Shown here: piece after piece, positions 7,848 to 52,228 of the stretch | Position numbering within the stretch: position 1 is the stretch's first letter | Layout of the letters: each line of letters begins with the position of its first letter | Assembly: GCA_963674595.2 (NCBI GenBank) | Contig: CAXXFV010000010.1 | Span: forward strand, 1 to 64,000 | Direction of reading: 5' to 3' | Origin: a bacterium | Lineage (GTDB): Bacteria; Zhuqueibacterota; Zhuqueibacteria; Residuimicrobiales; Krinioviventaceae | Length of the DNA stretch: 64,000 nucleotides | Notes under the pieces: model-generated | Databases searched by the model: none | What the model saw: only the letters and a program-made list of their open reading frames with translations | Told to the model about the DNA's origin: nothing | Translations under genes and position numbers: made by a program

Positions 7848-8450
7848 CCTAAAATACCTCCATTTTTCACCATTTTTGGTTTATTTATCGTAAAAAAATC
7901 GTAAAAAAATATTGCCCAACATTTTATTTAGGCAGTTTTGGGTAGAAATATTTTTTCTGCATAGCAGAAATTTATTTCAAAGCATGTCCGGAAAAGAAAC
8001 CTATTATGATAATACTATTGTTAAAAGTTTTTTAGTCCTTTGAAATAGAACTATTGTATCATGATACTTATAAATTACGATCAATCGCTAAACGATCAAT
8101 ATTTAAATATATTGAAATATTTTATAACGAAAAAAAATTCATTTCTTTTTGGGTAATATGTCTCCAATACAATTTTTAAAATTTAACAAAGCAGCTTAAA
8201 CATGTTCGTTTTTTTATTGTAATTCCTAATTGGTAATTGTTGTACTTGCAAAGTTTTAGACCAATTATAAATTACAAGTTGTAATCATTATAGAAGTTTT
8301 CTTTTTTAAACAAATCGTTTTCGTAATGAAGTGAAGAAAACACCTTATTTTACTTTTTCCCCTCATAGGAATTAAGAAAAAATTTGTTTTAATTCCTTAT
8401 TTTTAAAGTGTAACAAAAACTTCCTTTAAAAATGGTAAAAAATGTATATC

Positions 8451-8511
8451 GGACAACGAACTTACTATGAGCAATAGCGTTTTTTGCTATTGCTCATAGC
8501 TTTTGTTATTC
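8451..8511 (-). repeat. attC-like site (61 bp) closing the helicase gene
   Basis: Minus strand GAATAAC (contains the helicase stop codon) - 14-bp IR CTATGAGCAATAGC/GCTATTGCTCATAG - GTTGTCC. Confidence 0.6.
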
Positions 8512-11500
8512 GCTGTATCCTTTTTTCATTTTATTTTCAATTGCGATTATTATATCATCTTCACTATTTTTCACTCTTCTAAGAATTATTTCTAAGTAAT
8601 CACTGCCGATTCTTCTTCGCAAATTTTCTATATTTTGGATTAGTTCATCGTATGGCTTTTTGATAGACTTATCCGGTAAAACAAGTTTTCGTAATGTATT
8701 TGTTGATAGTGTTTTGTAACGTTTTATATCTTTTAGCAGAGTATCAATAAAGGAAATATGCGTTTGATTTAATTCGTCTCTCTTTTGCTTCAATAATGAT
8801 TTTAAACTATTTGATGCTTTTTTTTCTATAGTAAGATCAGAACTGCCCGATTTATATTGCGGTTTATATACTTTTATTTTTTCATAAGATTTCCAAAATT
8901 GTTTACTTAATGAAAGTCTTCTTTCATCAAAAGAACACTTTACAAAATTAAATAATTCTTGAAAGTTTTTTTCGGAAATTTTAATTTCCCCTCCTTCATA
9001 ATTTGCAATTAGCGAAAATAACGCCATTCCTTTTTTCCTAAAAACTACAGTATTATTTTCTAAATAGAGTTTTGCTGTTTTTGTTCTGTTTGGTAATTCT
9101 TTTACTCTTTTTATAATTTCGGGATGAACTTCGTTTATCTTGTTAAACTCGTTTCTTACAATAGTTACAATATTCAAATCTTCATCTACTTCGGGGTTAG
9201 AATTGATTTTTTGAAACAAACCGCTTGCTGTTGGCTCTTCATCGGAGTCAAATATTTTGGCATCTTCGCCAAGTGCATTATGAATTAAAAACATTTTTTG
9301 CTGTGCAATTTCTCTTATTTTAACTTGGTTTGCACCTTGCTCGGTGGGGAAAAGATTATAAATAAAAAGTTTATCAAATACTTTTGTTCCAATTCTGTTT
9401 ATACGACCTACACGCTGAATAACTCTAGTAGGATTCCAAGGAATATCATAATTTATTATTAATCCTGCACGATTTAGATTTACACCTTCGGAAAGTTTAT
9501 CACTCGTTATTAAAACATCGAATTCGTTTTTCTGCTTTACATATTTTGCATTAAAATTAGCGTCCAACTCAATTGCAAATTTTTTAGTAATACTGCCGTC
9601 ACAAAATAAAACTCTTCCGAGATTTTTTTGAAAATATTCTCTTAAATGAGAAACGGTATCTGTATATTCAGTAAATATTACTATTTTTCTCATTGGTTTT
9701 TTTTCTTTGCATAAGATTTCTTTTACATTTTTTAAAACTTCTTTTCGCTTAGGGTCTTCATTTACTAAATTTAATGTTTCAATTTCTTTTTGTATTTGCT
9801 CGAACAGCTTAATATCATTATCAATATCTTTTAAAAACTTGTCTTTATACTCAAACGAATCTATTTCATAAATTGTTGTGTGCTTTGGTGATGTTTTATT
9901 TTTGGCATTCCTTTTAAATTCATCCAATGCGTTTTCAATTGCTTCCAGTGTAAAATTATCAGCTTTATCTTCTTCGTTGTAAATAGAATCAATCACTTTT
10001 CTGTCTAAAATATATTTTCCAGAACTTTCTATAAATGATTTAACCATTTTATGAGTTCGTAAAAAGCGTTTAATACTTTTATCAAAAGCACCAAAAGAGC
10101 TTTCAAATCGTTTTACTAACAATCTCCGCATAAAATCGTACAAGTTACGCTGCTGTTGGAAAGTTCTGTTTGCCTCTTCATCCTTTTCCTTCTTCGGTTT
10201 TGTTTCATATTCAAAAGGACGATAAATAGCACCGTTAAATATACCTTCTTCGCTAAAATATATTTCTATTATTCTGTCGTAAAATTCTGATTGCTCCTTA
10301 TTCAATTTATAAAATAATTCTACCGGGTCTTTAATTTCCGAAAGGTTTTGTATCTCTTTTTTATATTCAAAATCAGTTTTAAGGTCTAACCTGTTTCGTC
10401 TTATAATTACTGGTGTAATAACATTCTTAATATCGTCAGCCATTTCACTGACATTTTCTTTTGCAAGGGTAATATCAATTGGTAGTTTTAGTCCAAACAT
10501 TTTGGTATAAAGTCTCTCTGCTTTTGTTCTTTTTTCACGATTTGCCGAACTATGATTCTTTAGAATATAGGAGAGATTTTTAAAACGATAGTTATAAGAA
10601 TGAAAACGTCCTTCCAAATCGGGCTCAATAGTGATGCCCGATTGACCGGGAATAATAAATAGTTTAAGGAGCGAAAAAATATCAGCCGGCGAGTTATTAA
10701 AAGGTGTTGCTGTTAATAGAATTACAATTTTCCCCCTGCAAATATCTGCAAGGGCTTCATAGGCTGAGGTATCCTGGTTACGGAATCGATGTGCTTCATC
10801 AACAATTACAACTTCATATTCTAAGTTGTTTTTTCTAATTGATTCTGATAAATTCTCAATATTACCTGTGCTTTCAATATCCCAGTTATAGAGCTTAAAT
10901 TTATTCCAATACTCATACCATCCTGAATTTTCTTTTCTATCCCCAATCAATCCGGGTGGACAGAGAATTAAACCTCTTTTGCCGAGTTGGTTTGCAATTA
11001 AAGAAGCAATAACCGATTTCCCCAAACCTACTACGTCGGCTATTATAACACCATTATAGGTTTCAATAACATTTAATGCTTGATTTACTGCGTCTATTTG
11101 ATAAGCGTATTTTTCAAAACCGTTTTCTTTAAGAATACGGCCGAGGTAAGGGTTTACTTTTTTATTTTCATACAATTCAATATAAGTTTTTAAGATATAT
11201 GCATACGCTTCGTATGGCGTTATTAATGATGTTTGTGTTTTATTTTGTAAAAAATCAAGGATGATTTTCTTACCATTGGGGGCTTCACTTATTGGGATTG
11301 CTTTGTTCCATAATTCATCAAAATAATTTTCTGCGGTTTCAAAACCATAATCTCTAATTTCAACATTAAACTCTTCCTGCCTATGTAAACCTGCTTTAGT
11401 AAGATTACTACTTCCTGTTATAAATTGTCCTTCAATATTAAATAAACTTTGAAATTGGCTATCTAATTTAAAGAGATAAACCTTTGCGTGATTTGGATTA

Positions 11501-11890
11501 AGTGTTTTCTTAATTGTTAAGCGCCCATCTTCAAGAAGTTTAATAAAAAACTCTATCTGATTATAAAAAATCTTCATTATCCATTTCAGCATTGTTTATT
11601 GCATAGTTAAGTGATTTTATGAACTGCGTAAAGTGTTCTTCTCTGCTTAAACTATCATCTTTGTTTTCAATCTCAACAATTCTGGATAGATATTTATCGA
11701 CCTGAAGACCAACAAGAATATTAAGTTTTACTTTATTATTTTCCTGTAATTTTTGATAAATTTCTTGCCAGCCGGAAAAATAAAAGAATCCTACTAAAAA
11801 TTTTAGTTCACTGCTTGCACTTATAAGTTTTTGCAAACGGTCTTTTAGGGATATTGTTTTTTCTGTGTTTGTAATAAAATTATTTATCAT
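8506..11890 (-). CDS. PLD-family nuclease fused to SNF2/SF2 helicase; one frameshift near 11565-11590
   Basis: VGFFYFSG (11561..11890), HAKVYLF and GSSNLT (HKD-like), ADVVGLGKS, DEAH, TATP, SEGVNL, QRVGRINR. Confidence 0.85.
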
Positions 11891-11894
11891 ATTT

Positions 11895-12756
11895 TTATAG
11901 GTTTTTATTCAAAAATTCTGTTAATCCGTTAATGACATCATCCACATTGGGTAGATCTTCTTTAGGAATTTGATGTTTTAAACTACTCTCCCAAGCAGTT
12001 TTAATTATCTTTATTGATCCGGTATTTATTAACTGCTCAACATTTTTGTATTCTAATCCTTTAAATTCCATCTTTGATAAAAAAGCTGATTTTATTTCTT
12101 TGCAATCCTCCTCCTTAAATGAACTTTTCAAGTTGTAAATATCATAATAATCACGCGGAGCAGTATATGAACGCTGAACCAATGATCTAATTTTTTCAGC
12201 AACAACTTCTTTCAAATTGTAACAATATATTTTACCCACTTCCATTTAATAGCGAATCTGAATAAGGATGAGTTATTTCTCTTAACTCAGGTTTAGAATA
12301 CCATTTTTTCGTATAAAGTAATTTCTCACTTTAATATTTGTCATCCATCTTTGCGGACTTGGCGGGCTCTTGATTTTTAGAATGATTTGCTCCCCAATAT
12401 GCTAACTTTGCCTGGTATCCGGTTAATTTGTCTTTATACCTAAGTTCAGAAATTTCTTGAATATGAAAGAGAATTCCAGAACTATGTTTAACTGTTTTAA
12501 TTACATCATTCAATATTTTACGAGTTAATTTGTAATCAGTAGTTCGTGAAGTAAAATCTAAATCTTCTGAAAAACGATAATTTGGTAAGTAACATTTGCG
12601 AAGTGCTGTTCCGCCTTTAAAGACTAATTTTTCTTTATTTTCATCTAGTGAATAAAATGCCGAAAGGAAATGCCCCAACACCCAATCTTTATCAACCGTA
12701 TCGGGCGGAACTTTCCACTCAATAGATTTATCGGTTATTTCCTTTTTTAGAATCAT
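11895..12756 (-). CDS. abiEii: AbiEii/AbiGii-family nucleotidyltransferase toxin (type IV TA), frameshifted
   Basis: DKDWVL, FKGGTAL, RFSEDLDF in 12331..12756; AEKIRS...RDYYD in 11895..12245. Confidence 0.85.
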
Positions 12757-12757
12757 T

Positions 12758-13559
12758 TTAATAAAACTCTTTATACAAATTCATAATTTCATCCCTACTT
12801 ACATTTAATCTTAGCCGCCAACTCGAAATAAATTCACCACTATCTTCGCCTGCTGAATCTATTAAAGTATATTTTTTATTTACCTTAAGTTTTGCAAACT
12901 TAATAAATTTTTGCAATCCCTTTTTATTCAATAACTCTGCTAAAAAACCAAGTCTTTTCGTTACTGAAATATTATTAACTGCTTCGGCATATTCAATCAT
13001 TTTTTTTGCTGTTAAGTTTTGCTTGTGAAAATGCTGATACTACCAAATCGAAACCGCCAGAATATATTGGCAAATCGAAGCAATCAATAATTGTTTTTTC
13101 AATATCAGTTATTGCATATCTGTAGTTTCCGTAACCAAGTGTTGTTATACCAACTCTTTTTCTTTCTGGAATTGTTACAAACTTGTAATTCACTCCGAGA
13201 ATTGCCTTATCTCTTTTTCGATTTGTGGTTTGAATAAAAACTTTGTTGGGAAATCGTGATGTTAAGCCGTGTATGTTTAAAGCCGACCAATATGCAACAG
13301 CACTGTTTTGTGAAATAAATGTGCCTATTACATTTTGGTCATTGAAATTAATATTAGAATATTTTGCTCTTTCTAAACGATTCAGAATTTTCTTATCAGC
13401 AAGATTTTCAACTACTTCGCCGATATTTTTAAATTTTTGATTTACTGATTTTTCAATTTCATTTAAATTAAAGTATTCTATTTCAAATTCATTTAGCAAG
13501 CGTACTAATTTTAGTTGCTCACTCGTTAAATTTTCCGATTTGTAACTACTTCTTGCCAT
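12758..13559 (-). CDS. abiEi: AbiEi-family antitoxin/transcriptional regulator, frameshifted near 13000
   Basis: AYWSALNIHGL, TDIEKTIIDC, KRLGFL, W.L..N; directly upstream of the toxin; A-run at the junction. Confidence 0.85.
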
Positions 13560-13600
13560 TACTTTTTATGTTGTTTAAACACTCAATAATTGGGGTTTTT

Positions 13601-13619
13601 TGTTACGTAATTAGTAACA
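13601..13619. promoter_or_regulatory. Near-perfect palindrome, candidate AbiEi operator
   Basis: TGTTAC-G-TAATTA-GTAACA about 40 nt upstream of abiEi; AbiEi proteins autoregulate via promoter inverted repeats. Confidence 0.45.
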
Positions 13620-13707
13620 CCAATATAAACATAATTTGTTGCAAATGCACGTATTTTTATCTAATTCACCATTCATAACTTATAATTTATAACTCGTATC
13701 TTATAAC

Positions 13708-16700
13708 TCATTTTAATGCGTCCTTAATTATCCTCACTTCCTCAATACTATCCAGAGTTTCCAGGTTGTTACGCAGCAGGTGATTTGAGTCGTACAAGCG
13801 TTGAAATTCACTTTGGATAATAGCCAGTTTTTTTTCCGAGCTCATCTCATCAGTTATCGGTTTTAAATTGCCCAAATTTTTTAAGATTTGTTTGTTGGCG
13901 GCTTTGAGTTCTTCGGGGAAAACAATTTCATAAACAAGCCCATCAACAACAGATTCAAAGTAATTTGATAATGGCTGTTCTTTTGATTTATCCCTGTACT
14001 CTCCCTTATAAAAACTTATGTAGTCAACAAGTTTCTCAATTTGTGAGTTAAAAAATTCTATCGGTTCAGGAATTGGTAAATGTTCCAAAAAGGATTTCTT
14101 GTATCGATACTTGCCAACCAATTCTCCTCCAGCATAAAAAATTCGGAACAAAACCGTTATAAGTTCAGAGTTCAACAATGCTGTAAGCCATTTCAAGTTT
14201 TCACCGGTAATTAAGAAAGCTGTTGCTTCCGGATAATATCTTTGAGTGTCGTAATAGAATTGGGGTTCGGAAACTATTTCTGAAAAAACAATTTTCTCCT
14301 TCTCTACCTCTTCAAGAAACGCACAGTTTCTTAAATTAGTCCAATGGTCGCCTTTATCTGCTCTAGTTCTAATATTTTTGGGGAAATTTTCTAAATACGA
14401 ATACAATTCTGGAAATTCATATTGAACATCAATTCGCTTGATACCTCTTTTTTTATCACCATTATGCGTATTGACCAAATAAAGATTGTGATAATTGCAA
14501 TAATAACGCCTAGTATCCCTTCCTCTTAGTATTGGTTTTATAATAGTTCTAATTTTTTGATTTAATAATACAAGTTCCTTTTTCTTATCTTCATTTATAA
14601 TAAAAGCGTCATTGTAACCTGTTAAAATGCCTCTGTAAAAGCTTAAGTTCCATTTTTTAAGCTTGACACCCACTTTTTCTAATTTCAACTTAATTTCAAT
14701 CATTTCAGGACATGATATTGCCCATACTTCTTCATTAAAATAATCTAAATCAATAGAATTATCTCTAAAATATTTAACCATTGAATTTAGTTTGGACTTG
14801 GAAAGTTGACATCCTCTGAATTCATTTTTAAAATTATCTCTTTGAAACAAAAGAATGCTGGAGTGAACAATAGCTGATGAAAAAACCATTTCTTGGCCAA
14901 AATCAAAAAGTAGCTTAGGATTAGTTTTAGCTAAGAAGTACTTACGTGTTGAAGTCCCGTAATTTGCTCTAAGCCATTTATTTGATGTAATGTAACATAA
15001 GTGTCCTCCTTTAGCTAATATTTTATTTCCAGTCTCATAAAACAATTCATAAATATCTCCGGATGAAGAAAATGTTTCAAAATTAATTTTAGATAAATTT
15101 TTCTTCAATTTTTCATCAAGCTTTGAAATTTGAATATATGGCGGATTTCCAATCACGATATCAAAACCTTCCCTTCGAGTCCGCTCAGGGTGGGCCTTCT
15201 GCGAAAAGACCTCCGCAAAGTAAACATTCCACAAAAAGAAATCTTTTGGCTTTCTGCCTTCGGTGTAGGCAGTTAAATCTTTTTCAATTTGTTCAATATC
15301 AAAGCCAAGTTTTTTAGTAAGATTTTGTTTCTCTTCGGCAATATATTTTTCGCGTTGTTCTTCTTTTGGAAATTGTTTGGCCTTTTCTTCAATATTTTTT
15401 ACCTGCTGAATATTGTCACTTATTTTTTCTTCAAATATTTTAATAATTGCTTTATCAATTTTATCTCGCAGTACTTTTTTAGTTTCGTTATCCGGCTCGT
15501 TTTGGTATTGGTGTTTCAACTCTTCAAATTCTTGAATCAATTTTTTGTGCTCTTCACTAACAGCACTATCTTTATTATTTTGTATTTTTTTTAATTCGTT
15601 CTCTAATTTATTTATTGTTTTAGACAGTTTCTCTAACTCTTTTTTTAATTTTTGATCTTGTCTGTTTTCTGCATTTAATATTTTTATAAATTCAGATTGA
15701 ACTTCTTTTTGTTTAATTTTTATATCATTTAGTTGTTCTTTTATTTCTTCTCTTTGAGACTTTATAGCCTCATTCTCATTCTTTTTATCATTAAAATCAA
15801 TTCCGGCATAAGTAGAAATTAAGCTGTTGCCCTGCATCAGTTTAAAATCGAGATTGGGAAGCGGTTCAATTCCATAATTGCTATCCGGCTTATCCCAGTC
15901 AATTTTTTCATCCACAAGTAGCGAAATAAAGAAACGGAGTTTTGCAATTTCAACTGCAATCTGCTGAATATCTACGCCGTAAATACATTTTTCAATTAAG
16001 TATAGTTTTCTGCCGTAGTCGGCATTTTTTTCTTTAAACTGCCTCTTAATCTGTTCAACAAGTTTACGCTGCACAACAGAATCGCTGACAGATTTTTTAA
16101 CTCCCTCAATTTGCGATTGCTTCCAGTATTCGTTTTTGAGATCGAGTTTACCCAAAATAAAAACAAGTTTATTCAGCATAGCCATCGGGAAAGCGCCCGA
16201 GCCGACTGCGGGATCAACAACTCTTAAATTGTTTATTAAATCGATTATTTTTTTTGTTGTTCCTTCATCAAACGGATTTTCAGAGTTGCCAGCATTTATT
16301 AGGGATTCTAAATTTTCATCAATATTAGAACTGGTTTCCAAGTTTGTTTTAAAATATTGTTTCAGACTTTCATTAGTCATATAATTAACAATTTCGCGGG
16401 GAGTATAAAAACTGCCGGTAGCTTTTCGTGCGGTGGTGGAAGTCTCTGGGTTGTAGCTTGCAAGTAGATTTTCAAAAATAGAACCGAGCAGTTCGGGGTC
16501 AAGGGCAACTTCAACATCATCTGGTTCATTTTCATCAATCGTAAAGTTGTAACCGTTAAGTAAATTTATTAAACCTTCTACTTCATAAGTTTTGTTCTCA
16601 TTCCCAAAGAAACTGCTGATGTCAACTTTTTCCGTTTCTGAAAAGAAAAGGAAATTTGGAACTTTTGGTTGTTGCTCTTTTGTTGCAGTAAAACCGTCAA

Positions 16701-17700
16701 TATATTTTCTTTCATTTTTATCTTTGGTTTTATAATCCAAACATTCGAATAACCCACCGTTTAGAAATGGAATATTTCCAAACAACTTTTCAAGTATTGC
16801 CGAATCACTAAATAAATTTTGATAACGAAATACATTATGGTTACCATAATCCGGGTTGTAGCCTTTTGCTCCTCTATCTTCGCTTCGGAATTTTCTCTCT
16901 TTTTGCTCTGTGTTCAGTGTTGCAAAAAAGAGATTTTGCAACACTGCTTTATAATATGTCGATTCTTCTTTTGAAAAATCTTTTAGCATTTTACTGATAT
17001 TTTTTTCATCAAAAAGATCGGTTGGAATAAGATTACGTACTTTCATAAACCAGATAAACATAAGCCTGGTGATAAGCCTTATAATTGCAACTTCTCGGCC
17101 ATTGGTTTCTTGTTCGGCATCTCTGGGAAATTCCACATTTTTAATAGCCCAAAAATACCAGCGCTGAAGTTTCTCGTAGAATTGTTTAGTAATTGGCTCA
17201 ACACTAAAAGCCTCTTGTATACTATCTAAGCTATTAAAATCACATTTGGAAATTTGGTTAATGAAAGTTTTGTTTGTCTGCTTTGAGCTTACAAAATAGG
17301 TGTATCTTTTAAAATCTGTAAAATCTCTTTTTGCACCAAGAAAATTAACCCGAATTAAACTAAATCGGAAGTTTCCTCCATCATCATAAAATATAAAAAA
17401 GGCAGCGTCTTTATTTTCTTTTTTAAGAATTTTCTTTGCAATTTCATACTGTCCTTTTTTCCCGGTTTTCCCGGTTAGCGGCGTTAAAGTTTTTGCAGTA
17501 AAAACAAGAATGTCGTCTGTATTAGTTAAATCAGCTTCACCAATTTTTACAATGTCTTTGTAATTATCAGTTATATACTCATTTTCATCAAACAGATATT
17601 CATAATTTTCCACATCCAGTTTGAAAGTCTTAATTTCTTCTCGGAAAAAATATTTTAGATTGGTTACAGAAAAATTTTCAATTAAGGTACTTATTGTCAT
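13708..17700 (-). CDS. Type IIG (Eco57I-like) restriction-modification enzyme, N6-adenine MTase with TaqI-like C-terminal TRD
   Basis: FLNGGLF, GSFYTPREIV, DPAVGSGAF (motif I), IGNPPY (motif IV), ITSNKWL, LLNSEL. Confidence 0.9.
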   Translation of the reverse strand: MTISTLIENFSVTNLKYFFREEIKTFKLDVENYEYLFDENEYITDNYKDIVKIGEADLTNTDDILVFTAKTLTPLTGKTGKKGQYEIAKKILKKENKDAAFFIFYDDGGNFRFSLIRVNFLGAKRDFTDFKRYTYFVSSKQTNKTFINQISKCDFNSLDSIQEAFSVEPITKQFYEKLQRWYFWAIKNVEFPRDAEQETNGREVAIIRLITRLMFIWFMKVRNLIPTDLFDEKNISKMLKDFSKEESTYYKAVLQNLFFATLNTEQKERKFRSEDRGAKGYNPDYGNHNVFRYQNLFSDSAILEKLFGNIPFLNGGLFECLDYKTKDKNERKYIDGFTATKEQQPKVPNFLFFSETEKVDISSFFGNENKTYEVEGLINLLNGYNFTIDENEPDDVEVALDPELLGSIFENLLASYNPETSTTARKATGSFYTPREIVNYMTNESLKQYFKTNLETSSNIDENLESLINAGNSENPFDEGTTKKIIDLINNLRVVDPAVGSGAFPMAMLNKLVFILGKLDLKNEYWKQSQIEGVKKSVSDSVVQRKLVEQIKRQFKEKNADYGRKLYLIEKCIYGVDIQQIAVEIAKLRFFISLLVDEKIDWDKPDSNYGIEPLPNLDFKLMQGNSLISTYAGIDFNDKKNENEAIKSQREEIKEQLNDIKIKQKEVQSEFIKILNAENRQDQKLKKELEKLSKTINKLENELKKIQNNKDSAVSEEHKKLIQEFEELKHQYQNEPDNETKKVLRDKIDKAIIKIFEEKISDNIQQVKNIEEKAKQFPKEEQREKYIAEEKQNLTKKLGFDIEQIEKDLTAYTEGRKPKDFFLWNVYFAEVFSQKAHPERTRREGFDIVIGNPPYIQISKLDEKLKKNLSKINFETFSSSGDIYELFYETGNKILAKGGHLCYITSNKWLRANYGTSTRKYFLAKTNPKLLFDFGQEMVFSSAIVHSSILLFQRDNFKNEFRGCQLSKSKLNSMVKYFRDNSIDLDYFNEEVWAISCPEMIEIKLKLEKVGVKLKKWNLSFYRGILTGYNDAFIINEDKKKELVLLNQKIRTIIKPILRGRDTRRYYCNYHNLYLVNTHNGDKKRGIKRIDVQYEFPELYSYLENFPKNIRTRADKGDHWTNLRNCAFLEEVEKEKIVFSEIVSEPQFYYDTQRYYPEATAFLITGENLKWLTALLNSELITVLFRIFYAGGELVGKYRYKKSFLEHLPIPEPIEFFNSQIEKLVDYISFYKGEYRDKSKEQPLSNYFESVVDGLVYEIVFPEELKAANKQILKNLGNLKPITDEMSSEKKLAIIQSEFQRLYDSNHLLRNNLETLDSIEEVRIIKDALK
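15172..15195. repeat. 24-nt REP-like palindrome inserted in frame in the RM gene
   Basis: CCCTGAGCGGACTCGAAGG(G) GC-rich hairpin encoding AHPERTRR just before EGFDIVIGNPPY. Confidence 0.6.
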
Positions 17701-17767
17701 GAGTAATTTCCAAATATGTTAGTTTTAATACAATTTTTGATATTACGTTTTTTTCTTTTAATATTGT

Positions 17768-17900
17768 GCATAACGGTTCGGCTATGGCAAGTCGCGATTT
17801 ACAGAGCACGTTCTTGTCGGCCGAGACAAGAACGCCTACGAGAACCGGAACGCCCAAAACCCAACTTCACCCGCCATTGGCTATAGCTTTGTTACCAGCC
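17768..17900 (-). repeat. attC site (~130 bp)
   Basis: Minus strand GGCTGGTAAC..GCTATAGCCAATGGC...GCGACTTGCCATAGC..GTTATGC, with internal palindrome CGTTCTTGTC/GACAAGAACG; begins 4 nt after the stop of 17905..18543. Confidence 0.8.
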
Positions 17901-17904
17901 GTAT

Positions 17905-18543
17905 TTATTCTTTATTTGAATCTGACTTCCATTTTTCAAGTGATTTAATAAACCTTTTTGTCAATAGATCATTTGAGTCAGAAAGTGCTTTAATTATATC
18001 GTCAAATGAAATTATTGATTTTTTATTTTCCTTATTCAATGGTTGTATGTAAATTATTGTTGGCTCAGTCTCTATGTCTAGATTCTTAATAATTTCTTTG
18101 TCCCTTTCAATCCAACCAATTTTTTCAATCTTGTCAAGTAAGTTATTGTATTTAACTTTATGATTTGTTGCGCTATAAATTTTCAGTAGTCCGCTTACAA
18201 GTCCTTTTACTTTAATTTTTGAAGCACTTTCTAAATACCAGTCTTGTTTTTCTCTACGTGACCTTTGGTCCGTTTTAAGTTCAATTAAATATACTTTGTT
18301 CTCGTTTTTTGAATAAGTCAGATAGTCAATTTTGAATGACTTATTCAATTCAGGATGTGTTGCAGAAATTTCTCCAACCCTTACCGAAAATTCAGGTATT
18401 ATAAAATCAATTTTTACCTTGATTACTTTTTCAATGATTTTGTCAAGATGAATTGCGAAAAAGATGTCTGCTCTTCTTTCTAGTTGATACGCTGGTAAAT
18501 TTCTCCAATCGTCAAGTAAGTCAAAAAGTCTATTTATGGTCAT
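17905..18543 (-). CDS. PD-(D/E)xK-like nuclease-fold protein, gene cassette
   Basis: KIDYL...YLIELKTD motif; flanked by GTTACCAGCC (18570-18561) and its exact complement in the downstream attC. Confidence 0.65.
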   Translation of the reverse strand: MTINRLFDLLDDWRNLPAYQLERRADIFFAIHLDKIIEKVIKVKIDFIIPEFSVRVGEISATHPELNKSFKIDYLTYSKNENKVYLIELKTDQRSRREKQDWYLESASKIKVKGLVSGLLKIYSATNHKVKYNNLLDKIEKIGWIERDKEIIKNLDIETEPTIIYIQPLNKENKKSIISFDDIIKALSDSNDLLTKRFIKSLEKWKSDSNKE

Positions 18544-18560
18544 TTTCTCTTTTTTTATAT

Positions 18561-18640
18561 GGCTGGTAACGGTTGTGTATAATCATTGTTCTTATTCCTC
18601 CGATTCAGGAGCATAAAGACAATTGTTTATGTCTATTTCT
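18561..18640 (-). repeat. Cassette 5' recombination junction with a degenerate attC-like hairpin
   Basis: Core GTTACCA preceded by an imperfect IR (ATTGTCTTTATGCTCC / GGAATAAGAACAAT). Confidence 0.5.
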
Positions 18641-18709
18641 TAAAATTAATTATAGTACCTTTCACTCCCACCACTAAAAAATCCTCAAATTTTCAAATAA
18701 GTATTTTTT

Positions 18710-18738
18710 ATTGTAATGGATAATTTTAAAAAAGTCAA
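18710..18738 (-). promoter_or_regulatory. sigma70 promoter TTGACT-N17-TACAAT driving the nuclease/RM cassettes
   Basis: Near-consensus hexamers, 17-nt spacer. Confidence 0.6.
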
Positions 18739-18797
18739 GTGTCGATTAAAAAATTTTTAAAACATTGATTTATTCAATAAATAATACAACGGTTATT

Positions 18798-19631
18798 TTA
18801 TTTATGCTTTTCAAGTTCACTAATTATTTCTGAACAATCAATTTTGCTCTTCTCCATTTTCTTTACAATTTCCCACGCTTCGTCATATTTTTTTTGTTCT
18901 AAATAAACAAGTGCAAGATTATAATTAGCTTCTTTCGAATCTTTATTTCTTAGTAAAGCAATTTTAAACTTTTCTTCAGCTTCATCGAATTTTTTTTGTT
19001 CATATAATTCTACACCTTTATTAAGCAAGTCATTAACACGAACAAGCGGATCAAAACCATATTTATTTAAACCGTTTGTACCTTTTTTAAAAAGTAATAA
19101 AAGTTGCAAATAGAAATTATAAATAGGTATAAAAAGTAACCAAAATTGTCTCCCTGGTCGTTCAATATCATGGAGTCGTTTAATTACAGTAATTGATTGT
19201 AGAAACAACATTATAATAAAACTAGTTATATAAATAGGTAATAATATAATATTATCCAAGTCTCCTATTAACCACATAGATATAAAAATTACAATGAACA
19301 ATGCAATCCCAATAATTGCGTTCAACATATAATATTCTGACCGGCTAATTCGGCCGTTAAACAATGATTTCTTTTTATTATTTAGTATATCATCAAGGCT
19401 ATAGGGAATTTGTACGTTCTCATCTACTTCATTATTTGAGAGTTCAGTAACTGTTTCATTTTTTTCCTTTTTCTGTATATCTTCTTCAAAGAATTTACCA
19501 TTACATTTTTTTGTAAACACTTTTGGATTACTTGGAATGTTTTCATGAATTTCACTGCAAACACCAAGTGTTGAGTTATAGTTGATACATAGAGGACAAA
19601 AATCACTAAAAGATTTCATTTCTTCACTCAT
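18798..19631 (-). CDS. DUF805-family membrane protein with N-terminal Cys motif and C-terminal TPR
   Basis: FNGRISRSEY, IKRLHD, G.NKYG.DP; TPR (ANYNLALVY); RBS GGAGAGG. Confidence 0.8.
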   Translation of the reverse strand: MSEEMKSFSDFCPLCINYNSTLGVCSEIHENIPSNPKVFTKKCNGKFFEEDIQKKEKNETVTELSNNEVDENVQIPYSLDDILNNKKKSLFNGRISRSEYYMLNAIIGIALFIVIFISMWLIGDLDNIILLPIYITSFIIMLFLQSITVIKRLHDIERPGRQFWLLFIPIYNFYLQLLLLFKKGTNGLNKYGFDPLVRVNDLLNKGVELYEQKKFDEAEEKFKIALLRNKDSKEANYNLALVYLEQKKYDEAWEIVKKMEKSKIDCSEIISELEKHK

Positions 19632-19719
19632 TTTACCTCTCCTATTCGATGTTAATTATCGTTGACATAGTTTATCTTCCATATTACCGCGCATTCCTTT
19701 GTCCATATATAGAAAAAAC

Positions 19720-20048
19720 GGCTGCATTTATAACCTTGCTTGTTTTCCTATATCTGGGCATTTTTTAATTCCCTTCCAAATCAGATAAACAAATCCGAAT
19801 TTACGATAAACCAGTGCACCCAACCCAAAAATTTTGACTGTGAAATAACAGGAATGTGATTTTGTGAGCAACTCAATCTCTTCCTCGTGTGTTTTTTTTT
19901 GAATTCCATTTATATGTGTAGAAAATCAGCTAAAGGGCATCAGGAGTTCCCATGCTCGACCAAATCATCCTAAAAAACAGTCCTTTATGACTAATAAAAT
20001 TATTATACAAATTTTGTTGACCCCGTGCAAGTGGTTTCTAAAGAATTT
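19720..20048 (-). promoter_or_regulatory. Promoter (TTGCAC 20030-20025, N17, TATAAT 20007-20002) plus conserved leader, copy 1
   Basis: Collinear similarity to 51773..52147, e.g. ATTCCTGTTATTTC, GTCAAAATT.TTGGGTTGG, TTTTTTAGGA, ACGAGGAA. Confidence 0.7.
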
Positions 20049-20126
20049 CACAATTTTTTCTCGCACGAAATGTGCTGTTTATAGTTATGAAGCTAAAAAT
20101 TATAGATAAAAAAACTCAGTTTCCTC

Positions 20127-20155
20127 TTGCGTTTTTTCCGTTTTTAGCATATAAT
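20127..20155 (+). promoter_or_regulatory. sigma70 promoter TTGCGT-N17-TATAAT for the Roc-COR gene
   Basis: Read directly; divergent from the array promoter. Confidence 0.65.
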
Positions 20156-20172
20156 TAATAAACATATCTATC

Positions 20173-20241
20173 GGAGGGAATTCAATGTTGAAAGCATTTT
20201 AGAAAAGGCGTTTTTACTGCAAGTCAGGTGAATGCCTTTTT
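20173..20241 (+). promoter_or_regulatory. Leader with RBS, mini-ORF MLKAF* (20185-20202) and terminator-like hairpin
   Basis: GGAGG-N7-ATG TTG AAA GCA TTT TAG followed at once by AAAAGGCGTT...AATGCCTTTTT. Confidence 0.5.
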
Positions 20242-20340
20242 GCGTTTTGGGTGGGATAAATTTATAAATAATTGCATTAATAAGGTAATTAGGTCGAAAA
20301 ATAATAGGTAGATTGCCACTTTAGAAAAAGGTAAAATGTA

Positions 20341-22983
20341 ATGAAAGATGAAGAGTTTAAGAAAAAATTAAATGAAGAAACAAGAAAACTTTCTAAAATG
20401 CAAACGACGGATTTCGCATGGCGTTGTGCTGTGCGTGCTTTGCCATTTCTCGCGATTAATGGTAATTTCAACTTTTGGGATGAACAAAATAGAAAAAATC
20501 ATATCTATAGTATATTCTATGCATTAGATATAAGTGTCTCCAGTGTCGCCGCCAACACCGCCTATGACGCTGCTAACGCCGCTAACGCCGCCGCCCACGA
20601 CGTCGTCCATTTTGTCGACTACAATGCCGCCAACGACGCCACCTACGTCGTCGCCTACGCCGTCGCCAACGCCGCCAACGTCGCCGCCAACACCGCCAAC
20701 ACCGCCGACTTCGCCGCCGCCAACGCCGCCTACGCCGCCGCCAATGCCGCCAACCACACCACCAACGCCGCCAACATCGCCGACTTGGTCATCGGCAAAG
20801 CCTCTGACTACGCCCCAAAAAGAATAAAAATAGAATCAATAATTTTACAGGATTTGAAATACTTGCAGGGTGGAAAAGAACAATTCACATCAATAGAATG
20901 GTATGGCGTTATATGGTATAATTTTCAAAAAGCTCTTGAAGCCGAAGGATGTGCATATTGGGGTAAATTATATAAAAATATTTTCGACAATCAATTTATA
21001 ATGGACAAAGAAGCCCTTAAAAGGCGTCTGAGCGTCCCTAAAGAAATACAAGCACAGGGCGCTGCAGCGGTCGCTAGTTATTTAGAAGAAATCGAAAAAA
21101 AAGGTGCCGAACAACTTAACGAGGCCCGTATTATCATACTCGGAGATAAAGGGTCCGGTAAGACCTGCATAGCGCGAAGATTAGTTAATCCTAATGCTCC
21201 AATGACGAAAGAAAATGAAAGTACACCTGGTGTTGAAACTACTTTCTGGAAATTGGAAAAAGATAATATAAATGTACGTATCTGGGATTTTGCCGGGCAT
21301 GTTGTTACTCACGCTGTTCATCAATTTTTTCTTTCAGAACGCTGTTTATATATTATTGTTTACAACGGGCGTACCGACAATCAAAACCAGAATGGAAATG
21401 AATTGCAATATTGGTTAGATCACATGAAAAACTATGGCGGAGATTCTAAAGCAATAATTCTTGTTAATAAACGAGACCAACATCGTGTTGAAATTCCAAT
21501 TAATTTTCTCAAGGAACAATATCCTATCATAAATCATTATACATTTTCTATTAAAAAAGATAAAAAGGAATTAGAAACTTTTCGAACAGATGTTGCTCAA
21601 TATATAAAAAACAATCTTTCCTGGGAAAATCAAATAATACCGAAAAGCTATTTTGAAGTCAAAGAGAGATTAGAAGAACTTTTTAAAGGTATAAACAGAG
21701 AATCAACAGATTTTATTACCAAAGAAAAATTCATAAAGATAGCAGAAAATATTGATAAAAGTAAACAAGATGAATTATTAAAAGACCTGCATTTTCTGGG
21801 CGTTGGATTATGGTATGAAAACATGGAGGATTATAATACTCTGGTACTTAATCCGGAATGGATCAGTCACGGTGTTTATAAAATCATCAATTGGGTACAT
21901 AATGAAAAACAACATTCTCTGGGTTTGGCTGATTTTGAACAGGTCTTTAAGAATGAAGCCAACCGCTATCCCAAAGACAAACATGAATTTCTATACAAGT
22001 TGATGATACACTATGAACTTGCCTATGAAACAGACGGCAAAGACTGTTTAATCATTCCCCATTTGTTAAAAGAAGACCGTCCTGAAAATCTGCCTGATTT
22101 CCCTGTTGGTGAAAGTTTAATGTTACGCTATAAAGCGGACCAACCTTTGCCCCCGAATACCATTTCCCGTTTTATTGTTCGTCATAATCATGAGATCAAA
22201 AAAGAAAAATCCTGCTATTGTGTTTGGCGATATGGAGTTGTACTAGAAGATAGTAAAGGAACAACTGCATTAGTACGGGAAGAAGATCGAACTATTAACG
22301 TTTCCGTAAAAGGTAAGAACAAGACAAACTATATCAGCACATTAAGAGATACTTTGAATGACATTTTTAAAAGTTATAAGAGTAAAATACCTGACCTTCA
22401 ATATCGCATAGTACGTTTTGGGGAAATTCCGAAAGAAATAGAGAAAGAGAATCCTTTATGGTTATCAGAAAAAAACATTTTTTATCATTTTCTCAGAAGA
22501 ACCCCTTTTTATGATGCCGTAACAGGACAATATATTGATCTAAAATCCATAATTGATAAATTAGAAATCAACATTAAAAATTTGACTTTAGGGAGTGGCG
22601 ATATTATAGATAATTCAATACATAATACTTTTAATTTTCAAAATTGCAATATCAACTTACAGAGTAATTTAAATGAATTAGCCCGATTATTTAAAAAAAC
22701 GGGTAATTTGGAAGAAGCGGAAGAACTCGAATATACTGCAGAAGTATTAGATGAGGCTAAACAACTTCAAAAAGATGAAATCAAGAAAAAAGGTGTTTTT
22801 AATAACGTGAGACGCTTTTTAGAAGATTTAGGCGACGATAAATCCAAACTGCATAAAACAGTTAAAGGACTAAAGCGAGGAATTAGTATTGCCCAAGATA
22901 TAGCAAAAACATATAACGATATTGCACAATGGGCTGGGTTACCTCAAGTACCAAAACCATTTTTAAAGAAGGAAGATAAATAA
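20341..22983 (+). CDS. Roc-COR (Roco-family) GTPase lacking LRRs, with Ala/Asn-rich N-terminal helical region
   Basis: GDKGSGKT (G1), STPG (G2), WDFAG (G3), NKRD (G4); COR motifs LH.LG, LNPEW, IPHLL, WRYG. Confidence 0.9.
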   Translation: MKDEEFKKKLNEETRKLSKMQTTDFAWRCAVRALPFLAINGNFNFWDEQNRKNHIYSIFYALDISVSSVAANTAYDAANAANAAAHDVVHFVDYNAANDATYVVAYAVANAANVAANTANTADFAAANAAYAAANAANHTTNAANIADLVIGKASDYAPKRIKIESIILQDLKYLQGGKEQFTSIEWYGVIWYNFQKALEAEGCAYWGKLYKNIFDNQFIMDKEALKRRLSVPKEIQAQGAAAVASYLEEIEKKGAEQLNEARIIILGDKGSGKTCIARRLVNPNAPMTKENESTPGVETTFWKLEKDNINVRIWDFAGHVVTHAVHQFFLSERCLYIIVYNGRTDNQNQNGNELQYWLDHMKNYGGDSKAIILVNKRDQHRVEIPINFLKEQYPIINHYTFSIKKDKKELETFRTDVAQYIKNNLSWENQIIPKSYFEVKERLEELFKGINRESTDFITKEKFIKIAENIDKSKQDELLKDLHFLGVGLWYENMEDYNTLVLNPEWISHGVYKIINWVHNEKQHSLGLADFEQVFKNEANRYPKDKHEFLYKLMIHYELAYETDGKDCLIIPHLLKEDRPENLPDFPVGESLMLRYKADQPLPPNTISRFIVRHNHEIKKEKSCYCVWRYGVVLEDSKGTTALVREEDRTINVSVKGKNKTNYISTLRDTLNDIFKSYKSKIPDLQYRIVRFGEIPKEIEKENPLWLSEKNIFYHFLRRTPFYDAVTGQYIDLKSIIDKLEINIKNLTLGSGDIIDNSIHNTFNFQNCNINLQSNLNELARLFKKTGNLEEAEELEYTAEVLDEAKQLQKDEIKKKGVFNNVRRFLEDLGDDKSKLHKTVKGLKRGISIAQDIAKTYNDIAQWAGLPQVPKPFLKKEDK

Positions 22984-24501: not shown

Positions 24502-25677
24502 TTAATACATTCTCCCGGAGGTCATAATCCGGTTATTAGAGCCTGAAGTCGCCGCAGCAACAAAAATCCCATTACCATAAGCAACGGCCCGCCAGGCGTT
24601 ATCGGCGGCACTGGCGCGGGACGTCCATGTGATACCATCCGTGGAAGTCATAACGCGGTCACCCGTGCCGCTATTGGCAACGGCAACGAACAGCCCGTTT
24701 CCATAGGTAACGGCCCGCCAGGCATTATCGGAAGCACTGGCGCGATATGTCCAGTAAAGACCCTCCGGGGACGTCATAACACGGTCACCGGTGCCGGAAG
24801 CGGCAACAGCAACAAACATCCCATTACCATAGGTAACAGCGTACCACTGGTTATCAGAAGCACCCATGCGGGAGGTCCAGGTAATACCGTCCGTAGAAGT
24901 CATAACACAGTAAACAGTACCATTGGAAGCAACGGCAACAAACCGCCCGTTACCATAGGCAACAGAACTCCAGTACTCATTATCGGCAGCACTGGCGCGG
25001 GACGTCCAGGTAATACCATCCGGCGATGTCATAATTTGGTGGCCTGTACCGGTAGTACTCGCAACAGCAACAAACAACCCATTACCGTAGGTAACAGAAT
25101 TCCAGGAAATATCTGCGGCGCTGGTACGGGACGTCCAAGTAATGCCATCGGGGGACGTCATAACACGGTTACCGGTACCACTAGCCGCAACAGCAACAAA
25201 CAGCCCGTTCCCGTAAGCCACAGAGGTCCAGGAATTATCGGCAGCGCTGGTGCGGGACGTCCAGTAAACACCATCCGTAGATGTCATGACGCGGTTACCA
25301 ATCCCGGAAGCAGAAACAGCAACAAATATTCCGTTGCCATAGGCTACAGACCGCCAGGTATTATTCTCCGGGTTATTACGTGATTCCCATATAATACCCC
25401 GGTCAATGAGATAGCCGGTGAGTTCTAAATTTCCTTGCGGGTCTAAATAAAACGTTTGTGCGCCGGTCGAGTTGTAGACCATAATGGCCCAAACACCATC
25501 CATATTTTTTAATACGATCGAACTTGTATCATAGTCTGCGATAGTCGAATGACTTTTTTCATAATTAGAATCAAACCACACCTGACCGTATATTCCCCGG
25601 TTATGGGTATAGGTAATCTGGCAAAAAGCCGAAACGCTCATCATGACCAAAATCAACAACATTAACCATTTTTTCAT
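24502..25677 (-). CDS. Seven-bladed beta-propeller (BNR/Asp-box repeats) with N-terminal signal-like sequence
   Basis: Seven ~43-aa repeats W..V.YGNG.FVAVA..GTG.RVMTS.DG.TWT. Confidence 0.85.
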   Translation of the reverse strand: MKKWLMLLILVMMSVSAFCQITYTHNRGIYGQVWFDSNYEKSHSTIADYDTSSIVLKNMDGVWAIMVYNSTGAQTFYLDPQGNLELTGYLIDRGIIWESRNNPENNTWRSVAYGNGIFVAVSASGIGNRVMTSTDGVYWTSRTSAADNSWTSVAYGNGLFVAVAASGTGNRVMTSPDGITWTSRTSAADISWNSVTYGNGLFVAVASTTGTGHQIMTSPDGITWTSRASAADNEYWSSVAYGNGRFVAVASNGTVYCVMTSTDGITWTSRMGASDNQWYAVTYGNGMFVAVAASGTGDRVMTSPEGLYWTYRASASDNAWRAVTYGNGLFVAVANSGTGDRVMTSTDGITWTSRASAADNAWRAVAYGNGIFVAAATSGSNNRIMTSGRMY

Positions 25678-45890: not shown

Positions 45891-45898
45891 TTAATTAA

Positions 45899-45927
45899 AT
45901 AATACAAACTTTATTAAACCCGTGCAA
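45899..45927 (-). promoter_or_regulatory. sigma70 promoter TTGCAC-N17-TATTAT
   Basis: Read directly; upstream AAATTCTTTA.AA block shared with the promoters at 20030 and 52128. Confidence 0.65.
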
Positions 45928-46038
45928 GCAGATTTTAAAGAATTTATCAAAGTATATTCGATTCAGACTATTATAAATGTATCACCTTTATAAAAATTCT
46001 TAATATCCTGGTATGTGAATTGTTTATACAACAAAATA

Positions 46039-50190: not shown

Positions 50191-50314
50191 GTCTAACATT
50201 TGGCATAATCGGTCGCTAACAAACCGATATTTTATTTGTATTTTGTTTTTTACCAACTTTTAAACTGCTCAAAATGGACCGCTGAAGCGGTCCGCGTTCA
50301 GCCCGTTGTTAGCC
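50191..50314 (-). repeat. attC site (124 bp)
   Basis: GGCTAAC AACGG GCTGAAC GCGGACCGCT...AGCGACCGA TTATGC CAAAT GTTAGAC; begins 4 nt after the stop of 50319..51281. Confidence 0.8.
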
Positions 50315-51772: not shown

Positions 51773-52147
51773 AAGCTACCTTTATCAAGCAGCAAGTATT
51801 TTCTAATATTGGAAGATTTTGTTTATATGTGCTTTCCACAGATTTATAAAGAAACAATTTCAAATACATACATTTTGCTAGGAAAATATCTTGATTAATA
51901 TTGAACATAAACTGAACCAACCCAATAATTTTGACCGGGAAATAACAGGAATATGACTATCTAACCGACGCAATTCTTTCCTCGTAACTGTTTTTACTTC
52001 CCATATATTAATTTTATGTGGTAATTCAGTTAAAGGCTTTCAGGACTCCCATTTCCGACCATATTGTCCTAAAAAATCTTCCTTTTACCTGACAAAATAA
52101 TGATACAAATTTATAATTTTTCCCGCAAGTTGTTTTTAAAGAATTTA
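51773..52147 (-). promoter_or_regulatory. Promoter (TTGCGG 52128-52123, N17, TATCAT 52105-52100) plus conserved leader, copy 2
   Basis: Homologous to 19720..20048. Confidence 0.7.
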
Positions 52148-52171
52148 ATTTTTTTTTCTCTTCAAAAATAT

Positions 52172-52197
52172 AAAAGCCCCGCATCACTACGAGGCTT
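52172..52197 (-). terminator. Intrinsic terminator ending the terminase operon
   Basis: AAGCCTCGTA-GTGA-TGCGGGGCTTTT. Confidence 0.75.
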
Positions 52198-52228
52198 GAC
52201 AAACGATTAAGTCCCCCCTTCTAAACCC

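Follow-up and report, generated by a model that had tools for sequence, protein, structure and literature searches.

The window analysed here, the first 64,000 nucleotides of contig CAXXFV010000010.1 (contig C10), belongs to a metagenome bin of 37 contigs and 6.6 Mb, with a completeness of 97.6% and an estimated contamination of 5.06%. Two groups of genes on its minus strand, an operon of accessory genes and a short gene block inside a prophage, are preceded by homologous copies of one element, a predicted promoter followed by a leader of about 190 nt, which is referred to below as the module. Copy 1 (20050-19808) and copy 2 (52148-51905) are 72% identical over 240 nt, with an E value of 4.2e-26 in the within-genome BLAST and 9e-25 in a separate comparison. 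The initial annotation described two collinear minus-strand copies, and the alignment contains each of the sequence blocks listed there; the homology is therefore real, although the 3′ limits proposed at the time (19720 and 51773) reach about 90-130 nt into unrelated sequence. The view of the module as a two-copy feature has to be abandoned. Two rounds of nhmmer over the own genome (profile of 244 positions, cut-off E<1e-3) gave 129 matches, 80 of them near full length, which means that they span at least 170 of the 244 profile positions. The near-full copies are located on 18 contigs, including contig C3 with the rRNA operon and its 16S gene.

The members of the family differ in how much of the module they retain. 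The 3′ tail is reached by 63 of the 129 matches, 18 end in or after the hairpin P5, 16 consist of the promoter and the first domain, 31 of the promoter only, and a single match is without the promoter. Most matches show 68-79% identity to copy 1 over the whole element, and values of 82% and 90% are found only over short pieces of 39-66 nt. On contig C29 alone, 18 near-full copies are found.

The most conserved columns of the profile form the promoter, which consists of an A/T tract ending in AAAAAC, the sequence CTTGCnC, a 17-nt spacer and TTTG-TATTAT. Since the tandem promoters of the host rRNA operon share the same build (A-tract, TTGACA, N17 and TAnnnT after TTTG or TTTA), the promoter of the module is read as strong and of the housekeeping (sigma-70-like) type, its A-tract being UP-like and its -10 element extended. 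At the sequence level, it is consensus-like and co-oriented with the downstream genes or cassettes, into which it would be directed. A loose pattern of this promoter occurs 200 times in the genome. In a subfamily of modules (window 20051-20075, C22:4735, C29:35675, C29:14593 and C29:26302), an extra block ACAGCACATTTCGTGCGRGAAAAAA is found just 5′ of the A-tract, and its dyad GCAC-N5-GTGC could be an operator.

The leader that follows is composed of domain 1, an AU-rich variable linker with conserved CCAC and GGGA, the hairpin P5 and the tail. In the family consensus, domain 1 is formed by three nested helices, P1 (AUCAG...CUGAU), P2 (AAGGAC/GUCCUU) and P3 (UCAGGA/UCCUGA), which close the loop UGGUCG.GCAYGGGAG. 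The P5 consensus, GAGGAA-GAUU/AAUC-UUCCU, encloses a Shine-Dalgarno-like GAGGAA and, five bases on, a near-invariant TTG. The tail ends in ...GUCAAAAUUAUUGGGUUGGGUGAGGUGUG, and the conservation fades about 8 nt past GGGUGAGG. Both the -10 element and P1 were located in 49 copies, and in 38 of these P1 starts 6 nt past the -10; the transcript should therefore begin within the first helix or at its base, and we infer a transcription start at the base of P1. The corresponding features of the two window copies and of their surroundings are collected in Table 1.

Table 1. Predicted features of the two module copies and their surroundings, in window positions.
Feature	Position	Strand	Description
Copy 1 promoter	20002..20050	minus	A/T-rich UP-like tract; -35 TTGCAC 20030-20025; 17-nt spacer; TG and -10 TATAAT 20007-20002
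Copy 1 domain 1	19925..19995	minus	P1 AUUAG/CUGAU, P2 AAGGAC/GCCCUU, P3 UAGGA/UCCUG, loop UGGUCG.GCAUGGGA; P1 6 nt after -10
Copy 1 P5	19849..19887	minus	GAGGAA..GAUU / AAUC..UUCCU; TTG 19876-19874
Copy 1 tail GUUAUUUCACAGUCAAAAUUUUUGGGUUGGGUGCACUGG	19808..19848	minus	probable relic of intI codons ~11-23 (..SKFLGWV..); family homology stops here
attC of the 212-aa cassette, copy 1 array	17770..17904	minus	R'' GGCUGGUAAC ... R' G/UUAUGC (slash, cut point); complementary cassette ends, GC-rich hairpin
Terminator-like hairpin AAGCCUCGUAGUGAUGCGGGGCUUUU	52160..52228	minus	after the 64-aa phage gene, just 5′ of copy 2
Copy 2 promoter	52100..52148	minus	-35 TTGCGG 52128-52123; 17-nt spacer; TG and -10 TATCAT 52105-52100
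Copy 2 leader	51905..52093	minus	domain 1 52093-52025; P5 with GAGGAA 51983-51947, TTG 51973-51971; tail to ~51905
attC-like site after the 320-aa gene, copy 2 array	50214..50314	minus	GGCTAAC...GTTAGCG, 101 nt, -28.3 kcal/mol
Promoter-only family member	45892..45946	minus	before the portal gene; nhmmer profile positions 5-59; other edge of the cargo slot

The helices were evaluated in two alignments, a MAFFT alignment of 40 copies and a model-fitted alignment, which leans toward structure. In the MAFFT alignment, 86.3% of the cells form standard pairs, compared with 33-51% when the partners are slid, and 12 of 28 pairs change on both sides, as against 7.6+-1.8 in shuffles (6 of 500 reach this level). 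The model-fitted alignment pairs 88.6% of the cells and contains 13 pairs changing on both sides (1 of 500); it also contains 35 compensatory cells against 15.6+-3.1 in shuffled data (0 of 500), with five both-side-changing pairs each in P2 and P3. The pair counts of both alignments thus confirm the proposed pairings AAAGG/CCTTT, AGGA/TCCT and AGGAA/TTCCT as conserved helices. The shuffle tests are inflated, because the aligned sequences are paralogs within one genome. The helices of the leader are moderately supported as conserved features, which by themselves do not demonstrate a function of the fold at the RNA level.

Such architecture raises the question of a dedicated cis-regulatory RNA, that is, a protein- or ligand-binding leader, an attenuator, or an antitermination element of the put or EAR type, which would place about 80 accessory operons, the integrase and the prophage cargo under a common signal. 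This explanation is unlikely in our estimation, yet it accounts for several properties of the family. The unpaired blocks UGGUCG.GCAYGGGAG, CUGAUUUACCAC and ACGAGGAAGAGAUUG are highly conserved between variable linkers in copies that are 70-79% identical overall, P2 and P3 carry compensatory changes, and toxins, defence genes and a recombinase would call for downstream control if transcribed from a strong constitutive promoter. The genome also encodes a NusG paralog (C7:125383-125658, open frame of 178 aa) beside the canonical NusG on C8. Leaders of processive antitermination, such as the HK022 put RNA, EAR, and those served by RfaH/ops and LoaP, are promoter-proximal, in some cases structured (put, EAR), and head long acquired operons, also in prophages. 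The module would resemble them in its promoter-proximal position at operon heads and in prophages, a likeness of position, with no similarity of sequence or structure seen, and in the prophage slot a read-through into the late genes would be harmful. No Rfam 15 family matched the whole window at gathering thresholds, and the search around copy 1, carried to E 10, gave noise only (E 0.97-7.4), which agrees with the earlier remark that the element was not recognised as a known family. In folding stability, the window leaders do not exceed their dinucleotide shuffles (z +1.69 and -1.10). When the two window copies were read by eye, without a terminator scan, neither the leader nor the sequence right behind it showed an obvious intrinsic terminator. 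In addition, unlike riboswitches, the leader is confined to one genome among those searched, and no candidate for the partner came to light.

The Shine-Dalgarno-like GAGGAA and the TTG are the best-conserved block of the leader, which brings up a translated leader peptide (MRRxQNHIPVxSxSKLLGWV...), whose product or translation would control the cargo. The frame from the TTG does give strings like LRRxQNHIPVxSxSKLLGWV across the copies, and so the similar peptides reported by the initial annotation exist; of the 47 copies with a located start, 36 keep it open over 21 codons or more. The remaining 11 contain a stop at codons 1-19, other ends of the frame vary, and frame-breaking indels of 1 and 4 bases lie inside it. 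The mean column entropy at codon positions 1, 2 and 3 is 1.12, 1.02 and 1.02 bits, with no third-position excess, and no coding constraint on the frame is visible. In view of the in-frame stops and the equal variability of the three codon positions, the leader-peptide interpretation fails, and we regard it as extremely improbable. An upstream open reading frame (ORF) coupled to the next gene was considered and rejected as well: the stop of the TTG frame lies within -20 to +30 nt of the next ORF start in just 5 of 46 copies, and therefore translational coupling is not general.

A different origin of this frame is suggested by the copy at C3:116982, which runs in frame into an intact integron integrase gene (intI). 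Its product, encoded at C3:115823-116812 and 330 aa long when counted from the module's own conserved GAGGAAGAGA-TTG, contains Phage_integrase and SAM_4 domains and the IntI-specific segment ..ALDKKYPNA..WQWVFP..RRHH... A decayed twin, with the leader and intI fragments, is present at C6:1538-1963, and a C-terminal intI fragment is found at C29:38744. Among the 129 members, intI follows just these two, C3:116982 (intact) and C6:1538 (decayed), and neither of the window copies has it. The portable Pc/attI-like platform envisaged in the initial annotation thus holds as a portable promoter-leader with a genuine integron link.

The tail extends this link to the whole family. Its SKLLGWVR and the IKLLEQLQ of the C3 intI are encoded equally far from P5, and the KLL codons differ synonymously (AAA TTA TTG in the family tail, AAA CTG CTG in the C3 intI). 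The IntI N-termini of 21 relatives read ..PKLLDQVR..IR.KHYS, with KLL in 16 and KLLxxVR in 12 of the 21, and in the intI genes of two relatives the KLL begins with the identical AAATTATTGG codons. The intI gene of one relative is preceded, about 130 nt upstream, by an A-tract, CTTGACA, N17 and TATTAT, without a homologous leader. It is therefore quite likely that the module represents the promoter, the 5′ untranslated region (UTR) and the first ~23 codons of an intI gene.

The source integron is of the reverse type, with intI transcribed toward the cassettes: the genes 3′ of the C3 intI run in the same direction, and behind the integrase gene lies an inverted-repeat site, with about 85 nt between GTCGTATAAC and TTATACGAC. 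As in the Treponema-type reverse integrons (PMC3607928), one copy of the module drives an intI transcribed toward cargo. At C29:7138, the leader breaks off in the P5 loop and continues directly into the post-intI site, which in C3 lies behind the integrase gene; the deletion of intI from a platform therefore happened at least once. IntI homologs (E<=1e-40) are encoded in 83 of 167 genomes of the phylum, a tally that counts the source genome (G000) and one unpublished genome (G115), on which no other result depends. The contigs of many relatives break off about 550-670 nt behind the 3′ terminus of intI, which would fit a repeated array starting at that point and suggests that reverse-type integrons are widespread in the phylum. 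The literature on KSB1 integrons returned unrelated Klebsiella papers only, and no search was aimed at a multi-copy intI-derived leader family.

Integron cassettes or attC sites are present behind both window copies, with clear junctions in part of the two arrays. The second gene after copy 1 (212 aa, 17905-18543) is a clean textbook cassette: its 5′ end, G followed after the cut point by TTACCAGCC, exactly complements GGCTGGTAAC at the start of the 135-nt hairpin site (17904-17770), which ends in GAACC G/TTATGC (slash, cut point). In the copy 2 array, an attC-like site follows the 320-aa gene, and GCTAAC...GTTGTAC features are found after a 294-aa gene. The idea that the module heads attC arrays is in this respect correct insofar as a clean cassette lies behind copy 1 and an attC-like site behind copy 2, and does not extend to the majority of the copies, which head ordinary genes. 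Nor does the module define such arrays, since most first downstream ORFs of the 32 scanned copies are ordinary accessory genes. Homologs in front of ordinary genes, as well as a part matching a decayed fragment of a known gene (here the 5′ end of intI), had been named in the initial annotation as evidence against its own proposal, and both were found.

The cassettes lead to the proposal that the module is an attI-type docking site with Pc, at which IntI would insert cassettes at the tail core G/TTGGGT (cut at the slash) or at the domain 1 hairpin, so that each full copy would head its own array. The GTTGGGT in the tail of 15 copies fits GTTRRRY, and the genome has an intact IntI and real cassettes or attC sites 3′ of both window copies; 63 of the 129 matches end at the same tail, and the swapping of cargo between sibling prophages, described below, starts exactly there. 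Furthermore, the Shine-Dalgarno and start frame of the module is closed by inserted DNA, which recalls ORF-11 of attI1 (PMC8876359) and likewise ORF-18 among the integron platforms. On the other hand, the conservation extends about 15 nt beyond the putative crossover, many copies are truncated elsewhere, and the genome contains GTTGGGT 494 times where 528 would be expected, which is no enrichment. The cores of the verified cassettes are GTTACCA, GTTATGC and GTTGTAT, and none is GTTGGGT. A separate inverted-repeat site, GTCGTATAAC...GTTATACGAC, lies 3′ of intI, where reverse integrons have their attI (PMC3607928), and copy 1, like many other copies, is directly followed by a large operon. Attempts at a genome-wide count of cassettes were of limited sensitivity. 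In a crude scan that missed the verified site, attC-like hairpins around the 80 near-full copies were not enriched downstream (13, compared with 17 upstream and 12 on the opposite strand); the 163 candidates of a scan for complementary cassette ends, too crude to recover the verified cassette, were roughly proportional to contig size; and nhmmer with the verified attC as the query matched only itself. The hairpin scan and the scan for cassette ends are both too coarse to weigh as evidence. An integron has one platform beside one intI, while here about 80 heads are found, nearly all without intI and mostly before non-cassette genes. The tail is probably a relic of intI coding sequence, with GTTGGGT as a putative core. 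Taken with these points, the docking site is rather improbable.

What follows the module is diverse. A same-strand ORF of at least 100 aa lies within 400 nt 3′ of 63 of the 80 near-full copies, and an antisense ORF of this kind in 8 of 80. The scan of downstream genes took the first ORF of at least 90 aa after 32 of the 40 best copies, the other 8 being left out; these genes are mostly ordinary accessory genes unrelated to one another, and for 11 of 30 downstream proteins no Pfam family was found. The operon behind copy 1 contains a DUF805/TPR protein, the 212-aa cassette ORF, a 1330-aa methylase of the Eco57I/TaqI_C type, small ORFs and a 1028-aa SNF2/PLD helicase, and copy 2 heads small ORFs and a 320-aa protein whose end weakly resembles a nucleoside deoxyribosyltransferase. 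Families and domains found behind other copies are TIR, Schlafen/AlbA_2, KAP NTPase, SNF2, DUF4238, HNH, a Gp49-type toxin, LVIVD and further Por_Secre_tail proteins, PA14/lectin, an outer-membrane barrel, GFA, Bro-N, a hybrid histidine kinase, a tyrosine recombinase and an IS200-like transposase. Defence, type IX secretion substrates, toxin-antitoxin and prophage cargo are represented.

Several neighbouring features deserve mention. The copy 1 operon (window 8506-19631, minus strand), with its methylase and an SNF2 helicase carrying an N-terminal PLD domain, resembles a defence island, which we take to be comparable to DISARM/BREX, and an 880-aa Roc-COR GTPase is encoded divergently from it (20341-22983, plus strand). 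Below the SNF2 gene, a 658-nt intergenic stretch contains a repeat of about 260 nt (7978-8237), of which five further copies with about 80% identity are located on C3 (twice), C29, C8 and C18. Just 5′ of several modules (C29:49480-49600, C29:50820-50940, C13:70130-70260 and others) lie a GC-rich repeat (..GTCACCCTGAGCGGCCTTTCGGCTCTGCTCAAGGACCGAGTCGAAGGGTG..) and tandem CCCTTACAGGATATTTA units. The module at C23:98724 heads an IS200-like Y1 transposase, possibly a partner of the repeats that flank the modules.

Copy 2 shows how the module is positioned relative to exchanged cargo. It lies inside a prophage, with a gpA-type large terminase gene (52445-54172), a 64-aa gene and a terminator-like hairpin upstream, and the portal gene (44231-45634) and structural genes downstream. 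Of the five close copies of the 64-aa gene, four keep the order of gene, hairpin and module, with the module 79-86 nt beyond the gene. Sibling prophages share about 85-92% identity as far as the leader tail, where the homology halts (51917-51944); it resumes at a like level at 45951, at the promoter-only copy, and the cargo between these points differs, being intI and two genes in a C3 sibling. In the sibling prophages, the slot lies between a full module and a promoter-only copy. The module marks cargo junctions and is placed co-oriented before unrelated accessory genes.

The prophage itself extends over window 23000-64000 on the minus strand and encodes RecT, a Lin1244-like protein, the gpA-type large terminase, the portal and ORFs of 1642 and 1041 aa. 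At least four sibling copies (C3 twice, C9, C22, C25, C5), 80-98% identical, differ mainly between the terminase/64-aa gene and the portal. Before the portal gene (45946-45760, minus strand), the promoter-only member leads into another type of leader, about 130 nt long, that ends in a long hairpin and a U-run (..CGGACUACAUGAC...CAUGGGUCCGUUUUUUU) and has the layout of a late operon that may be under antitermination or attenuation. Tandem repeats of about 126 nt with 72-77% identity (24517-25364) lie within a 391-aa ORF (24502-25677) of the prophage tail region and occur also in the C22 sibling.

Since copies sit at the exact boundaries of the variable slot, the family might be explained as a recombination linker or selfish repeat that bears a promoter and has no role at the RNA level, being kept by cargo exchange, as the PeSL elements, or mobile, as Correia or REPIN sequences. 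Its clustering, with 93 of the 129 matches at most 10 kb from another, would suit this explanation, and the islands that hold the modules are rich in other repeats. The PeSLs of T4-type phages (PMC2839356 and PMC4122927) are likewise conserved promoter-plus-hairpin motifs at shuffling junctions, bordering swapped gene blocks. PeSLs are short early-promoter/terminator motifs in the genomes of lytic phages, whereas the module has 240 nt, is mostly chromosomal, and carries its hairpins 3′ of the predicted start site rather than as a terminator of the preceding gene. The orientation relative to downstream genes is strongly biased (63 versus 8 of 80), and the helices and loop blocks are kept at 20-30% divergence, which argues for selection beyond mere homology. 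Neither terminal inverted repeats nor target duplications were seen by eye in the 5′ flanks of 50 copies or at the profile ends AAATTTTTTAAAAAC... and ...GGGTGAGGTG. Overall, a linker or repeat of this type seems quite improbable. A promoter borne by a miniature inverted-repeat transposable element (MITE) or another transposon, of the Correia-like type, was considered separately and rejected, as the combination of terminal inverted repeats and target-site duplication was not seen by eye.

Outside the source genome, the leader was looked for with a covariance model (R1), which in the own genome matched all 60 scored candidates. In other genomes, 16-60 candidates were scored each, and no leader was recovered in 40 relatives (18 of the same family, 22 of the same order) or in 150 sampled genomes of the phylum; with so few candidates scored, the negatives mean that the leader was not found in those searched. 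The pattern GAGGAANAGATTGN{10,30}ATTCCTGTT occurred at 32 loci in genome contigs, 75 in metagenome contigs and 20 in viral contigs. None of these 127 loci contained a full-length element by nhmmer, which gave short local matches only (best E 6e-4), confined to the pattern region and due to chance, in collections that may mask the own genome or close kin. Under the same possible masking, a second pattern, taken from domain 1, had no match among viral contigs. Copy 2 had no blastn match in a phage collection.

The closest published parallel is provided by the putative mobile promoters of Nijveen, Matus-Garcia and van Passel (2012), which are homologous upstream non-coding sequences before unrelated genes in one genome, with a mode of spread that is not established (PMC3575422). 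Most of their families are pairs with about 92% identity over 50-100 nt, and, according to the authors, they may bear post-transcriptional regulatory elements (PMC3575422). The likeness consists in homologous sequence ahead of unrelated genes within a single genome. The module family is larger (80-129 members), more diverged (about 70-79% identity) and longer (240 nt); its promoter is defined, its helices are conserved, and its origin can be traced to the 5′ end of a gene. Measured against the identity part of the definition of putative mobile promoters, which asks for at least 80% over at least 50 nt and besides sets a -150 to -50 window, the module copies mostly have 68-79% identity to copy 1 and attain 82% or 90% over 39-66 nt only. 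Promoter reuse (PMC3575422) and integron platforms are thus already known. Unusual are the number of copies in one genome (about 80-130), a leader architecture kept at 20-30% divergence, the derivation from the front end of an integrase gene, and the use across cassettes, defence islands and prophage slots.

On balance, the module is probably a self-contained expression head, consisting of a strong promoter and a leader of about 190 nt, of integron-integrase origin, and copied about 80-130 times before unrelated cargo. It would go back to the integrase gene of this lineage, of which it represents the promoter, the 5′ UTR and the first ~23 codons, and would have been copied, within this one lineage, ahead of defence operons, integron cassettes, toxin-antitoxin pairs, prophage morons and genes for secreted proteins. 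The promoter would fire constitutively, and the 5′-terminal hairpin together with the ribosome-binding site within P5 may stabilise the transcript or set the level of expression, in which they would be comparable to the ORF-11 signals of attI1 (PMC8876359). In the intI copy, P5 may gate or limit the translation of the integrase. The module may also serve as a shared homology or junction point for the exchange of cargo, as between the sibling prophages. Its spread could have proceeded by intI deletion from platforms, by homologous exchange with the module as an arm, in the manner of the PeSL motifs of T4-type phages, or by the action of IntI. Stem-loops at the 5′ terminus and Shine-Dalgarno-like sequences are known to stabilise single mRNAs, as in the ompA 5′ UTR and the STAB-SD of cryIIIA, which do not form multi-copy families. 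By analogy with these, the module has a predicted helix that would start with the transcript, and its Shine-Dalgarno-like sequence lies far ahead of the true start codon.

Several observations weigh against the interpretation as an expression head derived from intI. The 3′ ends of the family matches are spread along the profile, and such scattered ends fit erosion better than a single precise junction. The tail is short: 5 of 7 residues match the IntI consensus of the phylum, and about 17 of 22-24 nt match the intI starts of single relatives. The covariance model found no leader upstream of the intI genes of 24 relatives. With respect to the fold, besides the absence of excess stability in the window leaders, RNAalifold alone retains just 13 pairs at -2 kcal/mol, and the covariation is moderate, all sequences being paralogs of one genome. 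The nested inverted repeats could act at the DNA level instead, as hairpins or protein-binding dyads. The start site, the existence of the leader as RNA and the effect on expression are predictions from sequence. The sequencing runs listed for window 18700-20400 include none of RNA; three runs of unstated type, all from one study, contain this stretch or part of it. Finally, the case is limited to a single metagenome-assembled genome, a bin with the estimated contamination given above.

A more far-reaching proposal, which we hold to be possible but doubtful, treats the leader as a lineage-specific tag. An RNA-binding protein or a ligand reading the loops would then put about 80 accessory operons, among them defence systems, cassette arrays, prophage morons, secreted proteins and the integron integrase itself, under one post-transcriptional switch, and the same sequence would act as a cargo plug-in junction, so that a many-headed integron-like capture-and-expression system would have arisen from the intI 5′ region.

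If the expression head of integrase origin is the correct explanation, the front end of an integrase gene has been turned into a standard plug for the expression of newly acquired genes, which would provide a sequence-defined example of how horizontally acquired genes gain promoters. The module would also be a compact natural promoter-plus-insulator part, with about 80 natural variants on which the features of the leader could be tested. With IntI homologs in about half of the phylum genomes (83/167), the integrons of this little-studied phylum merit a proper survey. In this organism, integrons, defence islands and prophage morons would be linked by one shared regulatory unit.

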